A stretch of DNA of 64,000 nt from the IMG/VR virus record IMGVR_UViG_3300032770_000004, positions 79,375-143,374 of that record. One strand, written 5' to 3'. Every line of letters starts with the position of its first letter. The first letter of the stretch is position 1. The notes beneath the pieces are model-generated. The model was not told where the DNA came from, made no database searches, and saw only the letters and a program-made list of their open reading frames with translations. Of the stretch, positions 8,560 to 51,582 are shown one piece after another. This stretch comes from a virus. The position numbers and the translations under genes are program-made.

Positions 8560-10404
8560 ATGTCCGAGAAAACCTATACAGTCGAAGAGCTTTTGGCCGC
8601 TTGGAAGAAGGTCGAGGCCGAGAAGATCCAGAAGTTCGAAGCAGAGCTAAAGATGCTCCGTGCTCGTGAGCTAAAGAAGGCACTCGTGCCTCCCCACAAG
8701 CATGACGAAGGCACCACTGCTAGTGGTGGTATTGAGGATGTTCCTTCGGACAAGATGACCGACAAGACAGAAGTTTCTGTTTCCGTCAGTGCTTCTGATG
8801 ATGATGGTGGATCCGTCAGTCGTTCGTTCAGCTTTGATACCAAAGACGCCAAGAAGGCCGAGAAGAAGGCCGAGAAGAAGGGTGCCATCTGCGCTAAGTG
8901 CGGAATGATGAAGTCCATGTGTAAGTGCAGCCTGATGAAGGATGTTGCTCCAAGCGGATTCATGAAAGCCATGGTCTCGGACGAAAAGGGCAAGCTTATT
9001 GATACCGGCAAGCGCGACGGTAGCAAGCTCGCTCATGATGCCAAAGAGAAGCAGTACAATGAAGGCACCGAGAGTGACCCGGGTTCTGGTGGAATCATTA
9101 CCAAGGGGCCCAAGGCCATTCGTAAGGCAGCTGCTCAAGGTGGCCCTGCTAAGACCAACACTAACGACGCCGCCAAGAAGATGGGGGCTCCCAAGCGTTC
9201 AGCTACTGAAATGCAGCCCGACTCAAAGCTTCCACAGGAACCCGAGAAGCTTAACACTCAGAAGGCTGAATTCCTTAGCAAGCCTCCCGTATCTGAAGCA
9301 CAGCGACGCGCGATGTTTGCCGCCGCTTCGGGACACAGCACTCTTGGTATCCCGAAGTCTGTAGGTAAGGAATTCTCGGATGCAGATCAGGGCGGAAAGC
9401 TTCCTGAGCACAAGAAGACCAAGAAAGACGAAGTGCCAATGGCAAAGGAACACATTGGTTTTGACAAGTTGAAGAACAAGCTTGCTCATAAGCCTGGGGT
9501 TTCTGATCCCGCTGCTGTAGCCGCTGCAATTGGCCGCAAGAAGTATGGTCAAGCAGAAATGAGTCGAGCTGCTCATGCCGGAAAGGCTGCCCATAAAGCA
9601 GAACCTCCAATGGCTAAGCCGCCTTCCGGAAAGAACATGGCTACGGCCGTTCCAACCAGCAAGCCGATGGCTGCCCCTAAGATGGGTATGATGAAAGAGG
9701 AAAAGGGTGCCGTAAATTCTGATCCTATCGAAAAGGCTGCTGATAAAGAATCCGTCTATCGCGAGCGATACGAGAAGGAACAGGCAGCCAAGCGTGCAGA
9801 AGCCGACAAGAAAGCTCATGCCGAACATGGCAAGATGAAAAATACCATTCGCAATCTTAGCCCCAATTCCCCCTTCAAGCGAGACCTTGCCGGTGGATCG
9901 CTTCGAGTGAACAAGGACGCTATCGCAGACGCAGGGCCGATGTCCGAAATGGCAGCTCCAGATTCGACTGGATATTCTATGCGATCAGAGCTTCCCATGA
10001 AGAAAGACTCGATGACCGAGACCAAGCCTATGGGTAAGCCGGGCATCTTTGGACGTCTCCATGGCGGAATGCATGCCGCAGGAAACGCGATGTCGAAACC
10101 TGCTGCTATGCCAATGGCCGCTCCCAAGCCTGCAATCCCTGCTATGGGTGCAGGTCCAGGACACGCTGCTCAGGCCCCAACTACTCCTGGTGCTATGGGA
10201 TCGCAAATCGCCAAACCTCTAGCTCCGATGCCAAAACTGAAGCCAGCTGCTGTTGCCGCAGGCGTCAAACAGTACGGACAAGGACTGCCAACAGCTCCAG
10301 GTGGTCCAGGCGCAGAAAAGACATCAGCAAGTCGTCCTTCTGCAATGACAACATCAATCAAAACCGCCCCGGCAACTGGAGCTACAGTGCCCGGGAAGAA
10401 GTAA
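8560..10404 (+). CDS. Low-complexity Lys/Ala/Pro/Met-rich putative internal head polyprotein
   Basis: Many hydrophobic-x-K-[ADSE] motifs; embedded small modules SEAQRRAMFAAA and GFDKL..DPAAVAAAIGRKKYG. Confidence 0.5.
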   Translation: MSEKTYTVEELLAAWKKVEAEKIQKFEAELKMLRARELKKALVPPHKHDEGTTASGGIEDVPSDKMTDKTEVSVSVSASDDDGGSVSRSFSFDTKDAKKAEKKAEKKGAICAKCGMMKSMCKCSLMKDVAPSGFMKAMVSDEKGKLIDTGKRDGSKLAHDAKEKQYNEGTESDPGSGGIITKGPKAIRKAAAQGGPAKTNTNDAAKKMGAPKRSATEMQPDSKLPQEPEKLNTQKAEFLSKPPVSEAQRRAMFAAASGHSTLGIPKSVGKEFSDADQGGKLPEHKKTKKDEVPMAKEHIGFDKLKNKLAHKPGVSDPAAVAAAIGRKKYGQAEMSRAAHAGKAAHKAEPPMAKPPSGKNMATAVPTSKPMAAPKMGMMKEEKGAVNSDPIEKAADKESVYRERYEKEQAAKRAEADKKAHAEHGKMKNTIRNLSPNSPFKRDLAGGSLRVNKDAIADAGPMSEMAAPDSTGYSMRSELPMKKDSMTETKPMGKPGIFGRLHGGMHAAGNAMSKPAAMPMAAPKPAIPAMGAGPGHAAQAPTTPGAMGSQIAKPLAPMPKLKPAAVAAGVKQYGQGLPTAPGGPGAEKTSASRPSAMTTSIKTAPATGATVPGKK

Positions 10405-10425
10405 TCTCTCGATTCGAGGACACAA

Positions 10426-12952: not shown

Positions 12953-13411
12953 ATGAGTACTAAGACTTACTACGAAACGCACAAGGAAGAGATCAAGGCA
13001 AGGTCGCGCGCTTGGTATTGTGCGCATAAAGATGAAGCTGCTATTCGTAAGAAGGCCTATCACCTTAAGAACCTTGAAAAGGCCAAGGCAGATCAGAAAG
13101 CTTGGCGTAATGACAACAAGGATCGGATTCGCGGTAATCTATTGAAGCGAAAGTATGGAATTACTTTCGAACAGTACAAGGAGATGTTCGAAAAGCAAGA
13201 CGGTAAATGTGCCGTCTGTGAAGCGCCCGGAGCACTCCTAAATCAGTACGGGAAGGTCGGCCTTCATGTGGATCATAACCACGTGACTGGACAGGTCAGG
13301 CAACTTTTGTGCTCCAATTGCAATACAGCACTTGGATTGCTGAAAGAATCGCCAGACACGATCCGGAAACTACTGAGTTACGTCGAACGTAATTCGGAAA
13401 AAGTGGAGTAA
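12953..13411 (+). CDS. Endonuclease VII-type HNH homing endonuclease
   Basis: KYGIT..QDGKCAVC..LHVDHNHVTGQVRQLLCSNCNTALG. Confidence 0.9.
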   Translation: MSTKTYYETHKEEIKARSRAWYCAHKDEAAIRKKAYHLKNLEKAKADQKAWRNDNKDRIRGNLLKRKYGITFEQYKEMFEKQDGKCAVCEAPGALLNQYGKVGLHVDHNHVTGQVRQLLCSNCNTALGLLKESPDTIRKLLSYVERNSEKVE

Positions 13412-13919: not shown

Positions 13920-13950
13920 GGGCTACATGGGAGACCATGTAGCCCTTTTT
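13920..13950 (+). terminator. Intrinsic terminator after tail tube
   Basis: GGGCTACATGG-GAGA-CCATGTAGCCC-TTTTT: perfect 11-bp stem, GNRA loop, U-tract. Confidence 0.9.
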
Positions 13951-13959
13951 ATTACCATC

Positions 13960-13988
13960 TTGACCGAATACCACGATTCTGCTAGAAA
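13960..13988 (+). promoter_or_regulatory. Putative sigma70-type promoter of the kinase cluster
   Basis: TTGACC-17 bp-TAGAAA with TG extension, 8 nt before the ATG. Confidence 0.45.
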
Positions 13989-13996
13989 CTGGTGGC

Positions 13997-14533
13997 ATGA
14001 AAGTGCTCGGCAAATTTTTGAACAATGGTGCCTATAAGAGGGCTCACGAGATCGAAGGTTTCCCTAAGCAGGTGGCCTTGGTCATTGGTGGTTATCACGC
14101 TCGCCTATCTGACAAACAGCAATTCGAATTTTTGAAGGGGGAACACAGGCGACTGAGCATGTTGCGTCACGCTGGCGTGCCTACTATGAAGGCGCGAATC
14201 ATGCGCGTTTACAATCCGCACGAGAACAGGGAACAGTGGGCACTGATCATGTCCAAAATGAAGGCGTCCCTTCACGACCTTGGCGGGGTCCACGCGCTCA
14301 CTCTTAAGCAGTGGGCATCGTTTCTGAAGACCTTGCGCTGCCTCGCCAAGAGCAATCTGATTGTCCTAGACCTTCAATTCCTCGTGGGAAAGGACAAGGT
14401 AGTGGTCAATGATCCATCTGATGTCACCGTTCCTCCGAGCGACAACGAGGCCCCCAGGAATTGGGACGCGCGCGTCCACCGCGCCGAACAGCAATTCAAA
14501 TTTCTTTATCCCGATCAGGAGATCCCCCGTTAA
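13997..14533 (+). CDS. Minimal atypical protein kinase, HopBF1-like, paralog 1
   Basis: NNGAYK loop, E..RL..L...GVP, DLQFL, NDP. Confidence 0.65.
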   Translation: MKVLGKFLNNGAYKRAHEIEGFPKQVALVIGGYHARLSDKQQFEFLKGEHRRLSMLRHAGVPTMKARIMRVYNPHENREQWALIMSKMKASLHDLGGVHALTLKQWASFLKTLRCLAKSNLIVLDLQFLVGKDKVVVNDPSDVTVPPSDNEAPRNWDARVHRAEQQFKFLYPDQEIPR

Positions 14534-14536
14534 ATT

Positions 14537-15118
14537 ATGTCAAAACCATATGTATTAGTAGGGGAGCCACTTGGTGGCGGCGCCTATAAGGACTGCTATG
14601 ACATTGTGCAGGCTCCCGATTACGTGGCGCTCGTTCAGGCAGGTGGTGGTTCTGCCCAAAATGCCTTCGGAGGGTGTAAGTATCTTGCTCGCGAATTGGC
14701 TGGTCTGAAGAAGCTCGCAAAACTGGGTCTTCCTGTTTTGGAGGGCAAAATTAGGCGGGTGATCCTCAAAGGTGAACCCGGCGAACCGATTCGTCACAGT
14801 AAGGTGTGGGCTATTGTCGCGCCCAAATACGAATACTGGTGGTATGATGGCGGCGCATTCCCGAAGAAGCTTAAGCGTGGCCATTTCAAGGAACTTTTGA
14901 GGATCTATCGTACGCTCGAAAAGAACAAGGTAATCGTCAACGACCTCCAATTTCTCGCTAGAGGTACCGATGATGTTGTGATTGCTGATCCGCTTTCGAT
15001 AGGCCATCAATACGACAGCGGTTTTTATAGGGATGATATCCGGAGAATCACCAAAAGAATCAAAAACTTGGTAAGGAAAAAGAAAAATGGGAAAGGCAAG
15101 GCTCCTAAGAACAGGTGA
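14537..15118 (+). CDS. Minimal atypical protein kinase, HopBF1-like, paralog 2
   Basis: LGGGAYK, E..GL..L...GLP, DLQFL, ADP. Confidence 0.7.
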   Translation: MSKPYVLVGEPLGGGAYKDCYDIVQAPDYVALVQAGGGSAQNAFGGCKYLARELAGLKKLAKLGLPVLEGKIRRVILKGEPGEPIRHSKVWAIVAPKYEYWWYDGGAFPKKLKRGHFKELLRIYRTLEKNKVIVNDLQFLARGTDDVVIADPLSIGHQYDSGFYRDDIRRITKRIKNLVRKKKNGKGKAPKNR

Positions 15119-15614
15119 AATCCTCGGCACTGGCTGCTACAAAATCTGTTACGCTTTGGGGGGCGAGAAGAGCGGCAAGGCTGTGTTGCTAAATCGCTGG
15201 AATGAACACGATTCATCCCATACTCGTATGCTTTCTAAAAGAGAGCGTCCGTATCTACAGACTTTGCGCAAAGCAGGAGTACCTGTCATCAAGTATCAAG
15301 AGAGGCGCATACGCCATAAGGGAAAGATCACCATCGGCCTCGTCTGCAAGCGGTATGATTTTTCGTTCAAGGGGATGTGGCGAGTAGATCAGCTTAAAGA
15401 GGTTCATCTCTCGTCTCTTCAAAAAATTCGCGATAGCCTTAAGAAGGCGAATCTAAAGGTCACCGATCTCCAATTCTTGGCTACCAATTCTGGAGAAGTA
15501 GTGGTAGCTGATCCACTTAATGTCAGGAAACACGCTGAACATTTTGACACAGCCAGTTGGACTGACGTCCAAGGCTTTATCGATGCCATAACCAAAAGGG
15601 AAAAGGTCGCATGA
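15087..15614 (+). CDS. Minimal atypical protein kinase, HopBF1-like, paralog 3
   Basis: LGTGCYK, E..YL..L...GVP, DLQFL, ADP. Confidence 0.7.
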   Translation: MGKARLLRTGEILGTGCYKICYALGGEKSGKAVLLNRWNEHDSSHTRMLSKRERPYLQTLRKAGVPVIKYQERRIRHKGKITIGLVCKRYDFSFKGMWRVDQLKEVHLSSLQKIRDSLKKANLKVTDLQFLATNSGEVVVADPLNVRKHAEHFDTASWTDVQGFIDAITKREKVA

Positions 15615-15820
15615 TCGGCTACATTAGGAATACCCCACACGCGCTTATGGAGCTGGTAGGCATCAGACCCCTACCTGAGGCTCCAGGTGTTGAATATCAC
15701 GTCGTATTGGCCTGTTCTGGCGATCCTAGGGCCATTGCCGGTGCCACACGTCTCTTGGGAGTAGACCTACTATCGCCAGAATACGTTTATGAACGGAATG
15801 TCATCAAGTTAGGTAAGTAA
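15611..15820 (+). CDS. Hypothetical protein
   Basis: ATGA overlap with kinase 3. Confidence 0.55.
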   Translation: MIGYIRNTPHALMELVGIRPLPEAPGVEYHVVLACSGDPRAIAGATRLLGVDLLSPEYVYERNVIKLGK

Positions 15821-15831
15821 TCTTACTTGAC

Positions 15832-16113
15832 ATGGCACCTAAGCTCAATGAGTCTACATACGAACTTATCGATAGTCACGAAGGTCGATTGCAGCGCGTA
15901 GAAAGTACCGTTCAGGCTTTGGCAGTTGATGTCAAAGAGATCAGCGTCAAGCATGACGTGACCCAGGCGACCGTCGAGAAGGGGTTCGCTCAGATTTCTG
16001 AGATCCAGAAGAAGAAGCTAGAATGGCGCAGCAGCCTTGTTTCTGGAATCATCATAACCATAATCGGCGCCGCTATTTCTTTGGGTCTTGAAAGGCTCAT
16101 TGTCCACCACTAA
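15832..16113 (+). CDS. Coiled-coil + C-terminal TM protein (holin/antiholin-like)
   Basis: Heptad N-terminus, hydrophobic GIIITIIGAAISLG; TAATCT 8 nt upstream. Confidence 0.55.
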   Translation: MAPKLNESTYELIDSHEGRLQRVESTVQALAVDVKEISVKHDVTQATVEKGFAQISEIQKKKLEWRSSLVSGIIITIIGAAISLGLERLIVHH

Positions 16114-17086: not shown

Positions 17087-17141
17087 ATGAAGTAGATTAC
17101 ACCAAACCAAATCAGATTACTAGCCCGATAATCTAGCCTCT

Positions 17142-42100: not shown

Positions 42101-44948
42101 TTCGACTAACGACTTCCATGACGCAGACAATGGTGGTGTTAGCTTGGCTGAAGCTTTTGGTACCAACTTCGATTGGTCAGACTTTGCCGTCCATATGAAA
42201 GCACGCGGCAAGGCCAACGGCATTATGTGGCGATACTATCGTCATGGCCCCGAAGGCAACTATGCTCGTGTCCAATACACTTACCCGACAGTTGCAAGTC
42301 AGGCCACATCAGTGGTGACTGTCAATACACGTCTTGATGATTACGTTGACATTGGCATCAGTCTTAGATCCGGCGCAGCACGTACCGGTGTTGGAATTCA
42401 CAACACATCAGCAATCGGCGCCATCGCTACTTCAGGACCGGACGTCAACAATCTTTATACCTACCTGTATGTAATGTACCTAGCAGTTTCGAGTGGCCAG
42501 CGTGTCATTCAGCTGAACTACACGGGCGGTAACGCAAATGTGTTTAGCGGCGTCGTCACGGGTGGCACTTCCGGAGCTACTGCGACAGTAGTTAGCGACA
42601 CCCCAGGAGGAACCGGTACTGGCGTGCTTATTCTAACAGGCCCAGTCGGTTCCTTTGTCAATGGCGAAACCATTACAGCTGGTTCTGCCTCTGCTACCAC
42701 TAACGGTACAATGTATGGTCTCACTACCCTAACTCTCACGCTTCCTTCGCCGGCTACAGACCATGGTTGGGCCGTTGGTAACATCATCTGGTTCCAGAGT
42801 ACCAATGTCAACTTCTCGTCGGGACCATACACTATCACTGCCCGTACAGCATCTAGCATCAGTTTCGTAGACGTTGCCACAACGCAAGGCGCTACAGCTA
42901 CGCCTGGGCGTGTAAGTCAGGATACACTTGGAGAAGTCACGCTCAATGGAAGTACAGTGGTCGTAGGCGACATCTTCACGATGACCCCCTCCCTTTCGAT
43001 GATTGTTGGAGCGCCTCCAGTATTTCAAACAATCAAGACCTTAACGCTCGGAAGTGACAGCTTTACGGGCCAATCACCTAATGCGGGAACTCCTACAACC
43101 ACGCTTTCGTGGTACTACATTGGAAACACTGCCAATGTCTCGTGGTATCCATTGGATTCAAGTAACACGCTTACGAACATCAATACCGACGTTAGCGGAT
43201 CTGCCAATACGCCAATCTCTGGATACATCTACGGAACTCCTTCGAGCACCATCCTTGCTGCAAGCTATGAAGCTCCTGGCAATGGCGGTATTGGAAATAC
43301 CTATCCTTGGTACAACCTCGTTGACGGCATCAACTACGTACTCTCTAACACGATGCCAGGATCGCCTTCGACCCAGGTCAATTTCACATTCAAGAATGCT
43401 ACGGATGGATCTCTATCGACGAATTCAGATTGGATTGATGAAGATGTTCGTCTTGTTCCGACCACCGTCGCAAACATCGTCAACTATCTCAACAGCGCTG
43501 CTATCGGCGGATTGTTTGAGGCAACCGAAATTGCTATTGCCCAAGACGGCCAGAAGCCGCAAATCACCACCATCACAGTTGGAAGCCAAGGTGACATCAA
43601 TGTCAGCGGCGGCAATGCCAACAACGTAGCGGTACCCATTGTTGGTAGCGCAGTTGTGGCGGCTGATACCTCCGTGGTTTCCGTCCTTGCTTCTGAAGCT
43701 GATGGACTGAGAGGAAATGCGTGGGTGCGCCTAGAGAATGCTGTGGTTGCTCCAAAGGCGATCATCACCAGTGCGACTGCGTTGACTAGTATCGACGCCA
43801 CGGGCGCAATCGTAGTAACGGGTACGAAGCTTTGGAAGTGGAGTGCTGATGGTGGATCCACAGAAGACATTGCATCGGCAAACTGGCAGATTGAACGTCA
43901 AGGAAACTACATGGCTTATGTTTGGACGGGCGCCAGTCCGTATACCAATTTCGCCAATGTAGCCGAAGGTGACTGGGTATACCTTACCAATTTCACCGGA
44001 ACGATGAATACCCTCAATACGGGTGTCTTCCGTGTAGTGCGAACCAACGGAGTAGATACTTTCTGGATCGAAAACCCAAACGGAGTAGAAGAGATTTCGA
44101 GTGCGGTTACGATGTTCTTTGACTACAACAGCGCTATCTACAACGATACGCTGATTATAAACACTCCATTGTGGGGTAGCGCCAACGTTGGTACGTGGAC
44201 CGTTCTTGCACCAGACCTTACCAATCAATACCGAATTCTTGTCAAAAGCTTGACAGGTCAAGTCCCCGTAGCGGCGGGTCCTGTAGCAGCTCTTGGAATC
44301 AACGCCGGATTGATCCAGGTCTATGAATCGAGCCCTTCACGCCTCACTAAGCAGATCAGTGGTATCGCCCCTAATGGAAGCTCGCTTGTTGACATCAAAT
44401 TCACGACTAAGGGCGGCTACCAGAATGTGGGTGCTGCATATGGCACGATTATCAGGGCTCTAGACAAACTCCAGTTTGGTATCGACCAGACAACGGGAGC
44501 CGTACAGTCTATCAATCCAGGTGTCGATGCCTATGTTCACAACGCAGGCCTAATTGCTGAAGCTAACAAGGTTGTCTATGGCGACGAGAGCGACAGCTCA
44601 AGCTATCCTGGAATTGCCGCTGCTGGAGCTAATATCAATATTAGTGGGCCAATTATTCGCAGGATTCAGGTCTCGTTTGCTGTCCGTGCCGCTACTGGCG
44701 TAGATACCCAAGACATTCGAGCCAAGGTACGATCGGCCGTTGCTTCTGTCATCAATCAAGCTGGCGTAGGTGAATCTATCGCTATCAGCAAACTAATTAC
44801 CGCAGCCCAGGGCATCAATGGAGTCGTGGGTATCACGGTACTCGCTCCTGTCTATGGAAGCGGCAACGATCTAATCCCAATTCAACCCTTTGAAAAGGCC
44901 TTGGTCTTGGACGTTGAACAAGACATCCAGGTCAGTCTCGTGGAGTAA
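39156..44948 (+). CDS. Giant baseplate J-like wedge protein (1930 aa)
   Basis: ASGLALDRIG, GSIGNV, NGLDTEDDQSYRERI, KGT; C-terminal YPGIAAAG..VGESIAIS. Confidence 0.85.
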   Translation: MADIPTPRSYSQILGEMVDALLSRLGLPSLRVGSPALSILEAAAQSDLRSSQDIFNLLNSLSLDRASGLALDRIGADEQVPRLGQTAASGAVDISDTAFTKISTLIYQGLGSPIVGTMTLNVDDASLFPTSGNIYVGRGTTNYEGPIPYTATTNVGSYWALTLGTGTTKFHNLGEGVVLAQGGNRNIPAGTLMATPQGNAGTAVQFSTLYGATIPDGETLVQNIPSVARVPGSIGNVIANSVTTFVSPPFTTAAVNNPAPFANGLDTEDDQSYRERIRSARNSRSKGTDLAIQTGVIGITALDENKRVLSASIVTREDEPVTLYIDDGTGYEPISEGIAFEIIVDDALGGEQYLQLANGRPVQKASIVSALSAPFVLSDNCQLAVEVSGVRSTHQFPASDFSEITNASAFEVAASINSDPAISWSASATNNGNNVLIFAKADSNEDLQVVAADAGLIDANDLLGFNTNPAKTLWLYKNDVLLEKDGELALLTTKPQSQWSSIATGATLNISVDGIPLTITINDVDFINAGTSYVKVAATNSLASWAQVLNYKIPGVTVTVDGGSLDFTSNSGRSSRAAIAITGGSMQGAMFSTMTAQGRNKDYSLDRNLGQIKLETPLIAEDRLTAGSLNTRGFVVTPAFTTHNIASVATSVAGQNGAELWVVVDGNAQIVNIGAGIGTSLTVTNPTSPTWGKRVRYNSNAAANLFGNALEGDWVIATDLAFNIANRGAYRIAAVDAGGTWIEVERPSSWSTTQAAFNLLTGGMKVVRTLVEPQRVFITTANNYTALSLVTAMQPQLDGATAEVYQTQQVLLRTNSFTGGDIAVVAANDEGVLLGFPLTGAVASGISHLASIVASHPQTGTPGFNNYTVFSVTSSTVINYGSGTAPSSSGILVGLKALDDTSGTKYSNKNHISGIASQSGTVLTLRTPALEQWLPQDRFYVSSSYGITARDQIAVVVDGDEISKRYVMNMYRRVTPGSTTYGSTNDFHDADNGGVSLAEAFGTNFDWSDFAVHMKARGKANGIMWRYYRHGPEGNYARVQYTYPTVASQATSVVTVNTRLDDYVDIGISLRSGAARTGVGIHNTSAIGAIATSGPDVNNLYTYLYVMYLAVSSGQRVIQLNYTGGNANVFSGVVTGGTSGATATVVSDTPGGTGTGVLILTGPVGSFVNGETITAGSASATTNGTMYGLTTLTLTLPSPATDHGWAVGNIIWFQSTNVNFSSGPYTITARTASSISFVDVATTQGATATPGRVSQDTLGEVTLNGSTVVVGDIFTMTPSLSMIVGAPPVFQTIKTLTLGSDSFTGQSPNAGTPTTTLSWYYIGNTANVSWYPLDSSNTLTNINTDVSGSANTPISGYIYGTPSSTILAASYEAPGNGGIGNTYPWYNLVDGINYVLSNTMPGSPSTQVNFTFKNATDGSLSTNSDWIDEDVRLVPTTVANIVNYLNSAAIGGLFEATEIAIAQDGQKPQITTITVGSQGDINVSGGNANNVAVPIVGSAVVAADTSVVSVLASEADGLRGNAWVRLENAVVAPKAIITSATALTSIDATGAIVVTGTKLWKWSADGGSTEDIASANWQIERQGNYMAYVWTGASPYTNFANVAEGDWVYLTNFTGTMNTLNTGVFRVVRTNGVDTFWIENPNGVEEISSAVTMFFDYNSAIYNDTLIINTPLWGSANVGTWTVLAPDLTNQYRILVKSLTGQVPVAAGPVAALGINAGLIQVYESSPSRLTKQISGIAPNGSSLVDIKFTTKGGYQNVGAAYGTIIRALDKLQFGIDQTTGAVQSINPGVDAYVHNAGLIAEANKVVYGDESDSSSYPGIAAAGANINISGPIIRRIQVSFAVRAATGVDTQDIRAKVRSAVASVINQAGVGESIAISKLITAAQGINGVVGITVLAPVYGSGNDLIPIQPFEKALVLDVEQDIQVSLVE

Positions 44949-44950
44949 TC

Positions 44951-45967
44951 ATGTCTCTTCCTGCACTTAGCAAAACATACTACGCATACGGAAACGCTAC
45001 TGCTCCAGCTACAGATACCGTAGGGCACATTGCTTCATCGAACGCCTTCCTGCTGAAGCAATTTCTCGTTGGTAACGCTGTTGTAGGTGGCTCGTCATAT
45101 GGCACCCGCAATCCCAACAGTCTTTGGACCATCATGGGCTGCTGCGATTCTACGCAAGTGAAGACAGATGGTACTGACCTCTGGACCGACTACACGAAGG
45201 TCGTCTGGGCGAATAGTGGGTCAGCACATTCGTGGATATGGTTGCGTAACACGACGATTGGCCGCGACATCGTGATTGATGCCAACTCCTCTGCCTTCAC
45301 GTCTATCCGCATCACTGGCTCACGCACCGCTGACGCTCCGTTCTCTGGTGGCACGACTACGGCTGGGCCGACCAGTACGTACGAGTATACGGCGAAGACT
45401 TATAGCAACGGTACGAACATCAACTCTCCGTGGATCGCTGACACGGTGACAAGTGCTACTAATTATGCGCATTTTTGCTGCCCGGGTGATGGCACATGGG
45501 CCTTCTACACCTCGCGCGGCGGGTCTGGATACTTCAACCAAGCGATCGAGATGGTGCAGACGACCAACGCTGCGTCGGCCGACCACTACAACACTTTTTG
45601 GATGTTGGACTCGGCCAGTGCCACGCGCGGTTGCTTCGCTGCTGGAAATCTGACGAGCAACAACACGGCGGTCGGCCGCACCTTCAATAACGCTACGGGC
45701 GCCAACGGCGGACTCAGCGCTGGAAATAACTTCGGCGGTAACGTCCTCAACTCAACGGGGCTCGACGCAGGTACATCGAACTACATGGCTGTCCCGATCC
45801 ATATCTACACGTTCACGGGAAGTGCCGCGTATCGAGGCCAGTGGCCGGATCACTACCATGTGGCGAATGCGCCGATTGGTGGAAGCTACCCTAGCGCTGC
45901 CGCACAAACACACGTAGTAGTTGGTGACGTAGTGTGTCCTTTCCCCGGCGTGAACCTTTTGACCTAA
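44951..45967 (+). CDS. Putative tail appendage/receptor-binding protein
   Basis: Thr/Ser/Gly/Asn-rich, in the baseplate operon. Confidence 0.5.
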   Translation: MSLPALSKTYYAYGNATAPATDTVGHIASSNAFLLKQFLVGNAVVGGSSYGTRNPNSLWTIMGCCDSTQVKTDGTDLWTDYTKVVWANSGSAHSWIWLRNTTIGRDIVIDANSSAFTSIRITGSRTADAPFSGGTTTAGPTSTYEYTAKTYSNGTNINSPWIADTVTSATNYAHFCCPGDGTWAFYTSRGGSGYFNQAIEMVQTTNAASADHYNTFWMLDSASATRGCFAAGNLTSNNTAVGRTFNNATGANGGLSAGNNFGGNVLNSTGLDAGTSNYMAVPIHIYTFTGSAAYRGQWPDHYHVANAPIGGSYPSAAAQTHVVVGDVVCPFPGVNLLT

Positions 45968-45977
45968 GAGATAAGCC

Positions 45978-46934
45978 GTGACAGACGTCTCCAATATCGC
46001 GCTCTATGGGGATCAGGGTCCTTACTTTGTTCCGCTTGCGCAGATTCAGCCTAACCTTTCAGGAATGTACCTGCTAGGTGCCGTTAACAAGCTGAGTCTT
46101 GATGCTGTCGTCACGTCTTCCAATCAATTTATAGTAACTCTAGGTGAGCTAGTTACTCGCGCATCGACTAGTGCTTCTGACTATTCTGTCAGTGGTCCAT
46201 CAACAATTACGGTGACAGGAGTTACTTGGAACAGCACAGATACGTTCATCACGTGTACCTATACCGGCGCTTTCGTAGCTGGTACATACACACTTTCAAT
46301 TACTGCCGATACCATTTCCGATTTGAACGGAAACTTCAACAGTAACTCTCCTATCCCGCTTCTAAACACGACGTTTTCCGTGCCAACGATGACCTATGTC
46401 AGTCCTACTGGCGGTGCGTCTACAATACATCTGACCTATTCGTTGCCTCCTTACATTTCTGGAGACGCCGCTGTACCTGCCAATTGGATCATCACGGGAA
46501 GTGGTGTACCGGTGACAGTCACGAGTGTCACGACATCGGGGAACGACATCGTCTTGGGCGTTACCGAGCAAACCCAGGGGGCTAGCTATCAGGTGACAAT
46601 GCCAGCTGGCATCAGCGGAATTTCAGGCGTTAGCTACATAGCGTTATCTGGATCTTTCGTTGCCAACTTCACCGGAACCGGTATTGCACCGACTATCCTA
46701 ATCGCCTTCCCAGAGAACGATGCATACAAAGTGGACGTAATCTTTAGTGAGGCGGTAGTGGACACCGAAGCTTTGGTTGCTGCTAATTACAGCATCAACA
46801 ATGGGTTGCAGGTGTACTCCGTGGATAAGCTAAGTGATAGCTCCTATCGTCTCCACACAAGCCAGCAAACCGCTGGAGTAGTGTACACCCTCATCGTTAG
46901 CAACATTCATGATCTCAAGGGGAATCTGATTTAA
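45978..46934 (+). CDS. Ig-like repeat structural protein
   Basis: Three Big-like units (DYSVSG, ANWIITG, ANYSIN; DLNGN/DLKGN ends). Confidence 0.65.
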   Translation: MTDVSNIALYGDQGPYFVPLAQIQPNLSGMYLLGAVNKLSLDAVVTSSNQFIVTLGELVTRASTSASDYSVSGPSTITVTGVTWNSTDTFITCTYTGAFVAGTYTLSITADTISDLNGNFNSNSPIPLLNTTFSVPTMTYVSPTGGASTIHLTYSLPPYISGDAAVPANWIITGSGVPVTVTSVTTSGNDIVLGVTEQTQGASYQVTMPAGISGISGVSYIALSGSFVANFTGTGIAPTILIAFPENDAYKVDVIFSEAVVDTEALVAANYSINNGLQVYSVDKLSDSSYRLHTSQQTAGVVYTLIVSNIHDLKGNLI

Positions 46935-46935
46935 A

Positions 46936-49900
46936 ATGCCAGCAACTACTACGTTCACAGGTATTGGAATTTCGCTTCAGTCTGTTACTCCACAGACTAA
47001 CGGATCTTCCTTGCTTGTGCGTTTTACAACAGTTCCACTTCAGGTAAGTCCACTTGGCGCTAATGATGCGTTGAATCCGGCTAACTATGCTCTTACGGGT
47101 CCTGGTTCTGCTGCCATTTCGAGTGTTTCATCGGTAGCTACGGATTCGCAATCTGTAGCCATCGCATTCAGTTCTCCACTTGCTGCTGGAACGTGGATAC
47201 TCACTGTAACGAATATTCAAACCCCCGGGGCCGTTGGCCTGATTCCGCCTACCAGCATGACCTTCTTGGTCACGGTTAGCGCCAATGCCACCTCATTGGC
47301 GGCTGGCGCTAGCAATGATGATGCAGAAAAAATCATTCGTAAGCACCTCAGTCAAGGAATGGCTGGTGACAACTGGAATGCTCTCATCGCGGGGCTAGCT
47401 AGTGGAGACGATGCAAACTGGACCAATGCCGAGCTTGCATTTGATCAGCTCTTTGAGATTTCCGCCAGCGGCGCTTATCTTGACCGTCTTGGCTCCAATC
47501 GCGGTATTGTTCGACCACCCGATGTCGGACTGAGCGATGACCTCTACCGCCAGCTCCTGATCGCCCTTAACAGCAACAAACTGACCCACGAAGCTCTCCG
47601 TGAAATCCTGGCTATCTTCTATGGCCAGGATGCATTGCGAGCCTGGGCAGAGACCTCGCTTGAGGAGCCATTTGCCCTTAAAGATGGATCTACGCTGACC
47701 TGGGAACTCGACGAAGATACGGACCTATCTACGACCTTCTCGGCTGAACAATTCACTCAAATCGAAGCCGCTACCGCACTCGAAGTCGCGTCCATACTAA
47801 CCAAAGCCATGGCCGATGCTGGTACCTTCGGCTATGCAGCGGCTGTTGTCAATCCAATTACTGGTGGCAAGCGAGTTCGCATCTATAGCGGCAGCCTGGG
47901 CCTTAAGTCTTTCGTACGCATTACTGGTGGAACAGCACAGCCCTTCGTTCGTTTCCCGCTCTACAAAGAGGTCTACAGTGGTACGGTCACTTCTGGACTT
48001 GGTTACAACTGGTCATATAGCAACCCTTCTCAGGGCGTTACCAGAATCTCGCTTACTACAGTCGGCCAGCCGCTAATCGATATCTCGTCAATTCAGGCGG
48101 GGGACTATGTAGTAATTGGCCCCAACATCAACGTAGCTTCGGGTTCGTACTCCATTACGGCTGTTGATTATTCGTGGAGCGGCACATCACTCACGCAATC
48201 GTTTGATCTCGATGTCGATTTGGGATTCGTTGGTTCTACTCTTCAAATAGGAAATGACGACTATCGCTTCTTCAACCCTCAGAAACAAACAATCCTTAAT
48301 GGATCCAGAACTGTGGTGGTTGCCCAGGTTCAGCCCGGTCAAGTCGATATTCAAATTCCTGCAACTACCCAGGCTGTCAGTAGAGGACCCAGAATCGCTG
48401 CATATGGTCGAGATAACGCAACCACATTGGCAGTGGAGAGCTACATCCGTGACACTGACGGAACGGTTACGCTCAATCTCAGCGAGAGCCTTGGTTCACC
48501 GCTCGCCGCCAATTCTCAAATCTTCCTAGAGGGCTTTAGGCCTGCGCTTAGTCGCCCATGGACTAGCCCCGGCGTACCTGGAACATACCCTGCTGTAGCT
48601 ACAGCAAACGCCAGTTATGGCACTTGTTGGACATCTACCCAGACTCCCCCGTCTGCAAATAAGCATTTCAGCAGAATGGTGGCGTTGCAGAACGATGACA
48701 TTCTGATTACCGGAGGACTCTCGTTCTCTGGTGGTGTCACTGCCGGTGAATCCGCGAAAGCTAATAGATTCCGTCTTGCATCAACCACTACCACGGTCAA
48801 TGACGGCAGTGAAGCCGATGGAGCATCGAGATTTTCGTATCAGTGGATCGCGACGGCAGATATGAATACGGCACGCCTGGAACACGCACAGTCCCTGCTT
48901 GCTGATGGGCGCGTATTGGTGACGGGTGGTCAGTCATCAACAGGAAGCGGGATAGTATTCAACGTTATCACCGCTAAGAATTCGCCAGAGATTTATTCTC
49001 CATCTACCAATACCTGGACCAATGTAGCCGCAATGTCTATGAAGCGTACGGGCCATCAACAGGTGACGATGAACAACAACAAAGTCATCGTGATTGGTGG
49101 CGCCTTTAACATGGGCACGGCCACGAATACTACCGAAATTTTCGATCCGTCAACTGGCGTATGGTCAGCTGGTGCTTCGATGTCCATTCCCAGATACCAG
49201 CACAAAGCGGTTGCTCTCTCTGATGGTCGAATCTTTGTGACTGGCGGACGCACGCTCGGCCAAACAATGGCTACGCCAAATACCTGTCTAGCGTACTGGA
49301 CAATGGATGACTCCAGCAATCCTACTTTTGTCAACGATTTAGTTGGTAGTTGGCCGCTGGCTGTGCATGGTAGCCCTACTATCATTGATGGAAAGGTTAA
49401 TTCGGCACGTGACTTCACTGTCTCTGGTTCATGGGCAGATGAAAATGGCTACCTGAATGATCCTACCGCTATTTCCCTGCTAACAGGCGAATGGACTATC
49501 GAATTCTGGCTTCCCGCTGGATCCGGAACAGACGGCGTACTATTCGCGTATGGAGGACCAACCGGCGTCCTTGCAGACAATCTACTTTTTGAAGTAGGTC
49601 TTGCCGGAGGTGCCATTTATTGGAAGTGGCAATATGGTGCTGGTGTGAATGTCACTGCCACGGCTACTACCACTTTGGCTGGATGGCAATATGTAGGAAC
49701 ATTCATTGCTGTCAGAAAGAAGTTCAATGGAACTAACTATGACGTTTCTTGGTTTCTCAATGGCGTCGTAATGGACACCTGGACAAACCAAACGAATTGT
49801 GCAGGCGGTACTAATGCACAATGGTTTATCTGTGCAGATCCTAAAACCTCACCTGTTGTGAATGGTGGATCGCGAGCTATTCTTGATGAAGCTCGTATCA

Positions 49901-51582
49901 GCAACGTCGCTCTTTTAGATTCCGATATCCTTAACGACTACTACACTACCTCAGGTTGGGTTGGTTTCTTGTGGGATATCGAAAACGTTGAGGGCGTAGC
50001 AACAGATAGAACCGCTTTCTATACTCCCGGTACTAATACCTGGACAGAAGGACCCAAAATGCAGTTCGGTAGAGCCCTGCATAACATGCATCTGCTACCA
50101 GATGGGAAAGTTTTGGTCTACGGAGGATATGGCCGCGATCTCACGACAGAACTCCCACCACAACATCAGGATGAAGTCACGACTTGGCCCAATCTGTCTG
50201 GCGTAACAATGTCGGCAGAGTATTGGGATCCAAATACCAATCGTTGGTATGCAACTGAAGCACCTTCACAGCTATATGTTGATGCATGTTCAGTTTATTT
50301 GCCAACTAGCAATCAGATTATAGTCACAAATCCTCGTAACACCGCACAATCAATTGACTATTCCCAAATTGGTGTTTACACTAATTCTATTCCTTTTAGG
50401 GTTGAGGCGTTCGATTGTACAAATAAGACCTGGAAAGTTCTTCCGATCCAAAATACATCGGATCAATATCTTTCCACCACCTATGGAATCCATGCAGGCA
50501 GCGATGTCGTACTGATTACAGGTGGAGTGAATGGAAGCCTTGTACCGTATCCTAATGCTACGCTTTTGACTCCAGGTGCCACACAGTTTGTAGGTGGTGG
50601 TCTAAACGGGCTCCATTCAGTCGTATCATCTACCACTGGATCTATCACCATCTCGACTCCGAGCTATCCATTCTTCTCGACCAATTTTGGAGACGCAGGT
50701 TATCAAGGCGGACAAGTTTTCGACACTACCAATTGGACATACAACGACCTATACACGAACTACACCTATCAGATTAGCAATTTTGTGCGTAGCTCTAACG
50801 TGGCGACGTTGACATTAAATACGACTGCCGGGCTCTCTGTCGGCCAGTCTGTATATGTCAACATCAATACCAATGTGCCGATGGGTATCAAAACCCTCAC
50901 GGCTGTAACACCTACAACTATCTCGTACGTTGATACTGGTACTGACATTGGCTCTACACCTACAACAGGCGTAGTTGATATCAATCAGAATCCCAATGCA
51001 GCGATCCGTATCGGCGCAGTAGCAACACAGCCCTCTACTGACCCTGGTCCATACATCTTTGATCCAAAACTCGGACTTTCTGTTCTCAGCACAGCTACTA
51101 CTCTTCAAACAGCTATTCTGACCGGCCAACAAGTAGGCACCTTGACGGTAGCAGACAACAGTGCGTTCCCTAACGCCGAAGGATATTTAGTCATTGACTT
51201 CGGAATGTCAACACAGAGCAGCCCCATCCGTTATCTAGGCAAGTTTGGAACAAACATGCTCATCGTTGATTTTAGTTATGTAGCCGAACATGACTTCACG
51301 GTTGGCTCTACTGTAACCCTTCTACAGGGAAGGAATCCGTTTGTACCTGCCATTCCTTTGGACTCGGCCAACTTCTACATCACCGGCTCTACTATTGGTC
51401 GTATCGCTGCCCAAAACTTCCTCGCTGGTGCTGCTGCGACTGGCATCACTTTGTCAATCGACGTGGTCTATCCAGGAGATCGCGGACTTGGAGCAGAAGG
51501 CTATCCCACCGAAAACGCATCCAAACTGTCAGATGTGGTCAGAATGTTCGGTGGAGATAACCTTGACGAGGAGGGCCTATGA
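46936..51582 (+). CDS. Baseplate wedge (gpI-like) with kelch propeller and LamG insertion
   Basis: ASGAYLDRLG..GLSDDLYR; kelch GG motifs (LADGRVLVTGG, EIYSPSTNTW); LamG (WTIEFW, ILDEARISNVAL). Confidence 0.75.
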   Translation: MPATTTFTGIGISLQSVTPQTNGSSLLVRFTTVPLQVSPLGANDALNPANYALTGPGSAAISSVSSVATDSQSVAIAFSSPLAAGTWILTVTNIQTPGAVGLIPPTSMTFLVTVSANATSLAAGASNDDAEKIIRKHLSQGMAGDNWNALIAGLASGDDANWTNAELAFDQLFEISASGAYLDRLGSNRGIVRPPDVGLSDDLYRQLLIALNSNKLTHEALREILAIFYGQDALRAWAETSLEEPFALKDGSTLTWELDEDTDLSTTFSAEQFTQIEAATALEVASILTKAMADAGTFGYAAAVVNPITGGKRVRIYSGSLGLKSFVRITGGTAQPFVRFPLYKEVYSGTVTSGLGYNWSYSNPSQGVTRISLTTVGQPLIDISSIQAGDYVVIGPNINVASGSYSITAVDYSWSGTSLTQSFDLDVDLGFVGSTLQIGNDDYRFFNPQKQTILNGSRTVVVAQVQPGQVDIQIPATTQAVSRGPRIAAYGRDNATTLAVESYIRDTDGTVTLNLSESLGSPLAANSQIFLEGFRPALSRPWTSPGVPGTYPAVATANASYGTCWTSTQTPPSANKHFSRMVALQNDDILITGGLSFSGGVTAGESAKANRFRLASTTTTVNDGSEADGASRFSYQWIATADMNTARLEHAQSLLADGRVLVTGGQSSTGSGIVFNVITAKNSPEIYSPSTNTWTNVAAMSMKRTGHQQVTMNNNKVIVIGGAFNMGTATNTTEIFDPSTGVWSAGASMSIPRYQHKAVALSDGRIFVTGGRTLGQTMATPNTCLAYWTMDDSSNPTFVNDLVGSWPLAVHGSPTIIDGKVNSARDFTVSGSWADENGYLNDPTAISLLTGEWTIEFWLPAGSGTDGVLFAYGGPTGVLADNLLFEVGLAGGAIYWKWQYGAGVNVTATATTTLAGWQYVGTFIAVRKKFNGTNYDVSWFLNGVVMDTWTNQTNCAGGTNAQWFICADPKTSPVVNGGSRAILDEARISNVALLDSDILNDYYTTSGWVGFLWDIENVEGVATDRTAFYTPGTNTWTEGPKMQFGRALHNMHLLPDGKVLVYGGYGRDLTTELPPQHQDEVTTWPNLSGVTMSAEYWDPNTNRWYATEAPSQLYVDACSVYLPTSNQIIVTNPRNTAQSIDYSQIGVYTNSIPFRVEAFDCTNKTWKVLPIQNTSDQYLSTTYGIHAGSDVVLITGGVNGSLVPYPNATLLTPGATQFVGGGLNGLHSVVSSTTGSITISTPSYPFFSTNFGDAGYQGGQVFDTTNWTYNDLYTNYTYQISNFVRSSNVATLTLNTTAGLSVGQSVYVNINTNVPMGIKTLTAVTPTTISYVDTGTDIGSTPTTGVVDINQNPNAAIRIGAVATQPSTDPGPYIFDPKLGLSVLSTATTLQTAILTGQQVGTLTVADNSAFPNAEGYLVIDFGMSTQSSPIRYLGKFGTNMLIVDFSYVAEHDFTVGSTVTLLQGRNPFVPAIPLDSANFYITGSTIGRIAAQNFLAGAAATGITLSIDVVYPGDRGLGAEGYPTENASKLSDVVRMFGGDNLDEEGL

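Follow-up and report, generated by a model that had tools for sequence, protein, structure and literature searches.

Three tandem HopBF1-family mini-kinases behind the tail-tube gene, at a site of variable gene content, in a phage related to Myxococcus phage Mx1

Introduction

What are three adjacent, diverged genes for very small kinase-like proteins doing among the structural genes of a large phage? The genes in question (nucleotides 13997 to 15614) lie behind the tail-tube gene in a 64,000-nucleotide (nt) stretch of viral DNA, hereafter the window, which corresponds to positions 79,375 to 143,374 of IMG/VR record IMGVR_UViG_3300032770_000004. The source record is a complete virus genome of 169,962 bp with direct terminal repeats, in which these three are the only kinase copies. 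Its nearest cultured relative is Myxococcus phage Mx1 (169,621 bp), with which it shares 45% identity across the whole tail sheath protein. A first-pass annotation, made from the letters and their open reading frames (ORFs), had likened the three products to HopBF1, a type III effector of Pseudomonas syringae and Ewingella americana that is described in reviews as a protein serine kinase phosphorylating HSP90.

Phage kinases have recently been shown to act as broad anti-defence weapons, although only the T7 kinase family has been studied (PMC13645617), and until now the HopBF1 family has been represented by one effector alone, which plant pathogens direct at eukaryotic HSP90. Among the papers searched, we found no link of HopBF1-type kinases to phage biology beyond the carriage of effector genes by prophages. 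What is new here is a known family in a new carrier and in a new arrangement. Our reading of the locus, to which we assign a probability of roughly 0.6 and of which we infer the activity, substrates, timing, and purpose, is that the genes encode active HopBF1-family mini-kinases that would modify bacterial proteins inside the infected cell, in the service of host takeover or anti-defence.

Three divergent paralogs of the HopBF1 kinase family

The array consists of three adjacent ORFs on the plus strand: kinase 1 (13997..14533; 178 amino acids [aa], isoelectric point [pI] 9.86) and kinase 2 (14537..15118; 193 aa, pI 9.93) are separated by 3 nt, and kinase 3 (15087..15614; 175 aa, pI 10.01) overlaps kinase 2 by 32 nt. 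The proteins align over their full lengths at 28 to 32% pairwise identity, with 30 invariant columns, so the earlier description of three adjacent divergent paralogs of 175 to 193 aa agrees with both the ORFs and the alignment. The motifs that had been listed for them are likewise all present: a Gly-loop ending in YK (NNGAYK, GGGAYK, and GTGCYK, respectively), a beta3 strand that reads VALV or AVLL and lacks Lys, a helix-C motif of the form E-x3-L-x2-L-x3-G-[VL]-P, a catalytic DLQFL, and a DP. The resulting catalytic sets are G11, K14, E49, D125, Q127, D139, and P140 in kinase 1 and G15, K18, E53, D136, Q138, D151, and P152 in kinase 2.

Related loci were collected through the tail-tube protein (nine IMG/VR loci) and through kinase matches (four assembly contigs: L004, L015, L016, and a contig nearly identical to the window). 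The near-identical contig, which comes from another sample, carries the same three genes (178, 192, and 175 aa) and thereby supports the gene calls; the differences between its middle protein and kinase 2 are confined to two surface loops.

Evidence from profiles, predicted structures, and precomputed annotation places the three proteins in one family. Against the PDB, a profile of the three paralogs matches only HopBF1 (8hoe and 6pwd; expectation value [E] of ~5e-9 over query residues 8 to 155), the next match lying at an E of 0.25, and the profile alignment pairs the Gly-loop Lys, DLQFL, and DP with identical residues of HopBF1. AlphaFold (AF2) models were obtained for kinase 1 (predicted local distance difference test [pLDDT] of 84.5) and kinase 2 (pLDDT of 87.7; predicted TM score [pTM] of 0.84). 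Foldseek places HopBF1 (6pwd) first for the kinase 1 model (E of 6.9e-9, TM score of 0.67), with JAK2, Rio1, and NleH2 behind. For the kinase 2 model, the best VIA-align matches are 6pwd and 6pwg (Z of 14.3, root mean square deviation of 3.4 to 3.9 over 163 to 164 residues, aligning residues 4 to 185 of the model with residues 27 to 200 of the HopBF1 chain), followed by OspG (4q5h) and Rio2 at a Z of 10.4. The structure comparison with HopBF1 that the first-pass annotation had called for, thus, returns a kinase fold with HopBF1 at the top of both searches. Precomputed assignments to PF26324 (HopBF1_kinase) exist for a protein 98% identical to kinase 2 (P0001), for all three genes of the near-identical contig, and for the array orthologs in L004 and L015. 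Local Pfam and PHROG scans of the three kinases gave nothing significant; the local Pfam copy predates PF26324.

Membership in the family does not extend to orthology with the effector. Against the NCBIfam equivalog model for the effector (NF035942, T3SS_eff_HopBF1), the three kinases score 13.8, 30.5, and 26.5 bits, where the cut-off is 200; kinase 3, for example, aligns to this model with an E of 3.5e-6 over residues 10 to 149 while remaining far under the cut-off. Furthermore, the kinase core begins at residues 4 to 8 in the phage proteins versus ~27 to 33 in HopBF1, and the Gly-loop is reached at residues 8 to 15, where the aligned HopBF1 positions are 27 to 33. Because the core begins so early, the phage kinases have no room for a secretion leader. 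Since profile, fold, and PF26324 assignments agree, the phage kinases are members of the PF26324 family with the same minimal fold, and since the equivalog scores are low and the leader is missing, they are, by sequence, not orthologs of the effector HopBF1. The original match to HopBF1, therefore, stands at the level of family, fold, and active site, and falls away where it would equate the phage genes with the type III effector (13.8 to 30.5 versus 200 bits).

The distance from HopBF1 bears directly on one candidate substrate. It could be supposed that the kinases phosphorylate HtpG, the bacterial homolog of HSP90, and that host functions or defences needing this chaperone are thereby put out of action: family, fold, and catalytic residues are shared with HopBF1, which phosphorylates HSP90. 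Yet the phage proteins are distant from HopBF1 (17 to 20% identity, and 14 to 30 bits against a 200-bit cut-off), and the strong differences among the paralogs argue against a single shared target. HtpG as a substrate is, thus, possible but unsupported, and we consider it very improbable.

Neither the Hanks-type kinases nor the T7 kinase accounts for the three proteins. The Hanks-type Pkinase model (PF00069) has no match to them at an E of ≤10, and no Hanks-type kinase was found in this genome, in Mx1, or in the complete relative G001. T7 gp0.7 aligned to a 29-sequence kinase profile with a probability of 2.8% in hhalign, with only the Gly-loop aligned, and PHROG, including PHROG 2828, holds no match to the kinases at an E of ≤1. 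The claim that they resemble neither T7 0.7 nor Hanks kinases is borne out by these results. PADLOC matches of the kinases to PD-T4-6 and BrxC are weak and sub-threshold and were disregarded. A fold search of BFVD yielded only generic kinases of eukaryotic viruses (E of ≥1.5e-5) and no phage HopBF1-like entry, and the nearest clusters in the ESM Atlas are unnamed and viral.

Conserved catalytic residues on a variable background

In alignments of 29 and of 40 family members, invariance is limited to the Gly-loop G, the Lys at the third position after it, the catalytic-loop D and Q, and the DP; the helix-C Glu is nearly invariant. Every copy from the related phages (17/17), and the Mx1 copy too, has the full set of G, K, E, D, Q, D, and P, despite overall identities of about 20 to 57%. 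This is the conservation pattern expected of an active enzyme, from which we infer that the kinases are active. In the models, the Gly-loop Lys opens strand beta2, and beta3 contains no basic residue; WNK kinases likewise have their Lys in beta2.

An intact kinase active site does not by itself specify a protein substrate. The enzymes could instead transfer a phosphate or a nucleotide to a small molecule, to a signalling nucleotide, or to the end of a nucleic acid, and thereby neutralise, for example, a defence signal or a host metabolite that acts like an antibiotic. In the ESM Atlas, the structural clusters closest to the kinases include the aminoglycoside, Kdo, and fructosamine kinase families, all of the same fold, and HopBF1 itself is described in reviews as distantly related to aminoglycoside phosphotransferases; in addition, the tiny C-lobe of the models would seem to offer little protein-docking surface, and a high pI would suit nucleic acids. 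On the other hand, the sole characterised member of the family phosphorylates Ser residues of proteins, the structures that rank next after HopBF1 (OspG, Rio, and JAK2) are protein kinases as well, and a set of three to five divergent paralogs is easier to reconcile with many protein targets than with one small molecule. We, thus, regard a non-protein substrate as unlikely.

The charge argument is further weakened by comparison across copies. All three kinases are very basic, as had been noted (pI of 9.86 to 10.01), and kinase 2 has a Lys/Arg-rich C-terminal tail; the proposal built on this, that their targets are associated with nucleic acids, loses force because high pI is a family-wide tendency (pI above 9 in 60% of the 94 short family proteins among the best 150 of 314 profile matches) that is not kept in all copies. 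Among phage copies, low values occur in Mx1 (5.3), in the first gene of L015 (5.4), and in L007 (6.9), and basic charge was accordingly rejected as a defining trait of the phage kinases.

Position and transcription signals of the array

The array is preceded by the genes for the sheath and the tail tube, with an endonuclease VII/HNH gene inserted between them, and is followed by genes for small membrane proteins and a ClpP-like protease. It sits between the tail-tube gene and the head-protease gene, within the structural block. The counterpart of the tube gene in L015, ~70% identical, is labelled Phi812_tail_tube.

The signals around the array would set it apart from its neighbours. An intrinsic terminator-like hairpin on the plus strand (13920..13945; 11 pairs, 7 of them G-C, followed by T5) closes the tail-sheath/tail-tube unit, and an equivalent hairpin occurs 3′ of the tube gene in every related phage inspected. 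Behind it lies a host-type promoter-like element on the same strand (13960..13988; TTGACC-N17-TAGAAA) that ends 8 nt before the ATG of kinase 1, on account of which the kinase mRNA would be leaderless or nearly so. L004 keeps this layout (TTGACC-N17-TACAGA-N8-ATG), and in L006, L007, L008, and L015 TAnnnT hexamers stand 6 to 7 nt before the first kinase ATG. In the window as a whole, the pattern TTGAC-N17-19-TANNNW was found 18 times, versus 9.4 ± 2.8 expected from shuffles. TAATCT, a putative late-promoter motif, is absent before the kinases; it occurs 8 to 9 nt before the ATGs at 15832 and 17142 (15818-15831 and 17120-17141) and ~24 nt before the sheath gene (about 10395-10405). Because of the terminator, the host-type promoter-like element, and the lack of TAATCT, the cassette is probably transcribed by the polymerase of the host, separately from the late tail operon. 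Of the initial proposal that the genes lie behind the tail-tube terminator with a promoter of their own, the terminator is confirmed; the promoter is plausible, given the layout in L004 and the enrichment of the pattern, but a strict scan does not recover it (see Discussion). No terminator was found directly after the array.

This setting is also where a role in the virion has to be weighed. The kinases could be virion cargo that is made late, packaged, and ejected with the DNA so as to act before phage expression, in the manner of T4 Alt and internal proteins. The array lies between the tail-tube and head-protease genes, inside the structural block; most copies have the strongly basic character that is common among internal proteins associated with DNA; family members serve as cargo domains of phage-tail-like injection systems (eCIS_core fusions); and a 2846-aa protein with four kinase domains, described below, adjoins tail-fibre-like genes. 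Against this stand the strong terminator between the tube gene and the array and the presence of a host-type promoter-like element in place of the TAATCT of the neighbouring late genes. Moreover, the proteins have no N-terminal extension that could serve as a packaging or cleavage signal, the Mx1 copy resides among small non-structural genes, and the context of the 2846-aa protein may be bacterial, with type IX secretion system (T9SS)-type sorting domains next door. Taken together, these points make packaging an improbable explanation, and transcription from a host-type promoter, with action of the newly made kinases in the infected cell, is the reading that we follow.

Two further ORFs touch the array. 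A 69-aa ORF on the plus strand (15611..15820) has a start that overlaps the stop of kinase 3 (ATGA) and probably shares a transcript with the kinases; the TAATCT at 15818 overlaps its stop codon. It was considered as a conserved kinase partner or regulator and rejected: a 47% identical counterpart follows the L004 array, and no clear counterpart occurs in L015 or L006. On the minus strand, an antisense ORF (14555-15130; 191 aa) covers nearly all of kinase 2; no homolog supports it, and it most probably just mirrors the coding of the opposite strand. Farther upstream, the endonuclease VII/HNH gene (12953-13411, plus strand), between sheath and tube, looks like a mobile homing endonuclease; it is also found in L007 and L008 and is absent from that position in L004, L006, L009, L010, L013, and L016.

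As to the carrier, the host is probably a myxobacterium or a relative, judging from the kinship with Mx1. The G+C content of the window (51%) says little about this, because that of Mx1 (55.5%) differs from that of its own host (68.8%) (PMC10720576). Searches of this complete genome, Mx1, and G001 gave no match to a tyrosine integrase, and the phage is presumably lytic. The locus was present in only one DNA sequencing run, from a wetland metagenome, which is possibly the source of its assembly.

A variable slot in related phages

The number of kinase genes behind the tube gene ranges widely among relatives: five in L004, four in L015, three in the window and the near-identical contig, two in L006, and one each in L007, L008/L011, and L016 (the L016 copy lying ~2 kb from the tube gene in divergent orientation), with none in L009, L010, L012, and L013. 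In G001, the complete genome that holds L010, there is no kinase copy anywhere. A narrower kinase alignment used as a query for the locus search recovered only L006.

In a maximum-likelihood tree, kinases 1, 2, and 3 pair with genes 1, 4, and 5 of the L004 array, respectively (support of 100/96, 98/97, and 98/96), and because each pairs with its own L004 gene, the paralogs predate the split of these phages, copies having later been lost or gained. Between the window and L004, identity is 93% for the tube and 83% for the sheath, versus 55, 42, and 37% for the three kinases; other non-structural genes are at 48% (the ClpP-like protease) and 40% (a 222-aa gene).

In Mx1, the slot behind the tail-tube gene is occupied by 15 tRNA genes and small ORFs (L005 13146-19699; Mx1 record 43464-50017), and this position looks like a general hot spot of plasticity in the group. 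Mx1 possesses one intact kinase copy elsewhere (118538-119158; WNM70255.1, annotated “hypothetical protein”). This gene adjoins that of a macro-domain protein (WNM70256.1) among small unannotated genes (L022 4039-5180; Mx1 record 118538-119679, minus strand). The Mx1 copy was recovered by profile search only: blastn of the locus against 50,697 isolate-phage records returned nothing, as did tblastn of kinase 2, kinase 3, and one distant family member against the isolate-phage records.

The wider family

The kinase profile matched 314 representatives (E of ≤1e-3) among 1.84 billion. Lengths and architectures were tallied for the best 150 of the 314 matches plus one cluster member added later, giving 94 stand-alone proteins (≤260 aa) and 57 longer ones, with the kinase at the C terminus in 33 of the 57. 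Among the N-terminal modules of the long proteins are RHS, filamentous-haemagglutinin repeats, and the eCIS core domain (DUF4157), which are the usual carriers of exchangeable toxin tips, and some of these toxin classes are directed against bacteria. The stand-alone members whose context was looked up are all on phage-like contigs (7/7), five of which are Mx1-like and two of other kinds.

These architectures bring up the question of whether the phage genes serve the bacterial host as secreted effectors or toxins, against eukaryotes or competing bacteria, in the manner of phage conversion genes. HopBF1, a type III effector, is itself linked to mobile elements, and related domains end RHS, CDI, and eCIS toxins. 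However, the copies considered here are stand-alone proteins of about 175 to 215 aa that lack an N-terminal leader and any delivery domain, the array has no conserved immunity-like neighbour, and the search for a tyrosine integrase found none in this genome, Mx1, or G001. We give this explanation almost no credence and retain the view that the kinases would act within the cell that produces them.

Several members from other settings were observed. One of the two contigs of other kinds, an unrelated phage-like contig (L023 1712-6464), has small same-strand genes, including two family kinases (155 and 178 aa) near a ribosomal L7/L12-like gene, an AAA_33 kinase, and a gene labelled Acb5; on another phage-like contig that is not Mx1-like, the family kinase adjoins a T4-type RNA ligase. 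In the 2846-aa protein mentioned above (P0005; L017 8001-16541), the final 1200 residues contain four kinase domains of HopBF1 type, each with K, E, D-Q, and DP in place; the neighbours of its gene are tail-fibre-like genes (Peptidase_S74) and genes encoding T9SS sorting domains, and the contig, of 40% G+C, is either phage or bacterial. Finally, in a 395-aa bacterial protein (L018 8001-9188), a HopBF1-type kinase forms the N-terminal part and the C-terminal half is unannotated; its gene adjoins tex on a chromosome of 72% G+C, and several matches of about 367 to 429 aa share this architecture, which suggests a cellular branch of the family, apparently neither toxin nor phage.

Discussion

Under the reading that we prefer, the array would encode three ~20-kDa, constitutively active protein kinases of PF26324, each little more than an ATP-binding lobe and a catalytic core and each lacking an activation loop. 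The ATP-contacting Lys would be provided directly after the Gly-loop, in beta2 and not in beta3, with a D-L-Q catalytic loop and with DP in place of DFG. The genes would form an accessory cassette in the variable slot behind the tail-tube gene, read from a host-type and not a late promoter. Inside the infected bacterium, the kinases may phosphorylate host proteins, and perhaps phage proteins too, and this phosphorylation might switch off or divert host functions, defence systems possibly among them (compare T7 gp0.7, an unrelated kinase). Because the paralogs are old and have very different surfaces, each probably has substrates of its own. Action within the bacterium would fit the missing leader, the lack of an integrase match in the complete genome, and the place of family domains at the ends of toxins, some classes of which are directed against bacteria; an accessory part in host interaction would fit the variable copy number, the separate L004 ortholog of each paralog, and the pair of family kinases near the gene labelled Acb5.

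Several observations weigh against this reading. The position inside the block of virion genes also fits packaged proteins, and kinase-fold enzymes can have non-protein substrates or other chemistries. A strict sigma-70 scan found no promoter before the kinases, the timing of the promoter-like element is a guess, and no RNA data set is listed as containing the locus. The host assignment derives solely from the 45% sheath identity to Mx1. Last, the faster divergence of the kinases was considered as a sign of an arms race and rejected: such a signature is not shown, because other non-structural neighbours, at 40 to 48% identity, diverge as fast.

Going one step further, we tentatively suggest, with less than even confidence, that these proteins represent a second, independent family of phage anti-host kinases after T7 gp0.7, deployed as a battery of zero to five paralogs that would have different targets and be expressed from a leaderless early transcript with a host-type promoter. 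What the locus adds to the T7 family is a second, unrelated minimal-kinase family that is common in uncultured phages, is catalytically intact, and has multiplied into diverged arrays. Type III effectors, the toxin tips of RHS, CDI, and eCIS proteins, and phage genes share one small kinase module, and if this suggestion is true, HopBF1 and the bacterial toxin kinase warheads would be relatives of a phage-host weapon. Because the cultured and tractable Mx1/M. xanthus system has one copy, the role of a HopBF1-type kinase inside a bacterium is directly testable.

Comparison with known systems helps to delimit what is particular to the array. In its genomic design it resembles phage morons, being an accessory cassette amid conserved structural genes with an upstream terminator, a host-type promoter-like element, and a presence that varies among relatives; morons, however, are classically found in temperate phages and expressed from prophages, whereas here no integrase was found and no terminator stands right after the array. 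OspG and NleH are, like the phage proteins, stripped-down kinase cores of similar size and are the second-best structural matches, but they belong to a different family with no sequence match and are type III effectors acting in eukaryotic cells. Polymorphic toxins and injection cargo (RHS, filamentous haemagglutinin/CDI, and eCIS_core/DUF4157) carry the same kinase domain, there fused to delivery modules and presumably exported, whereas the phage kinase is stand-alone and presumably acts in the producing cell.

The closest functional parallel is with T7. The T7 kinase, in which DP(V) replaces DFG, disarms nucleic-acid-associated defence systems by phosphorylation and is directed to nucleic-acid-binding proteins by a DNA-binding tail (PMC13645617). 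T7 gp0.7 and its homologs in the Autographiviridae, thus, resemble the kinases described here in being phage kinases used against the host, in having DP(V) for DFG, and in lacking a regulatory activation loop, and the basic tails of the phage kinases could conceivably target them in a similar manner. There is, however, no detectable sequence relationship, and gp0.7 is a single gene whose 359-aa product includes a shut-off domain, as opposed to several paralogs of ~180 aa.

The closest structural parallel is with HopBF1, which is in the same Pfam family and shares a minimal fold across the whole protein (Z of 14.3), a size of about 175 to 205 aa, the Lys right after the Gly-loop, the helix-C Glu, D-L-Q-F-L, and DP replacing DFG. 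The phage kinases differ from it in being only 17 to 20% identical, in lacking its ~30-residue N-terminal leader, and in being carried by large, presumably lytic phages as tandem arrays of one to five diverged paralogs, and their target would presumably be bacterial, as opposed to the eukaryotic HSP90 on which HopBF1 acts.

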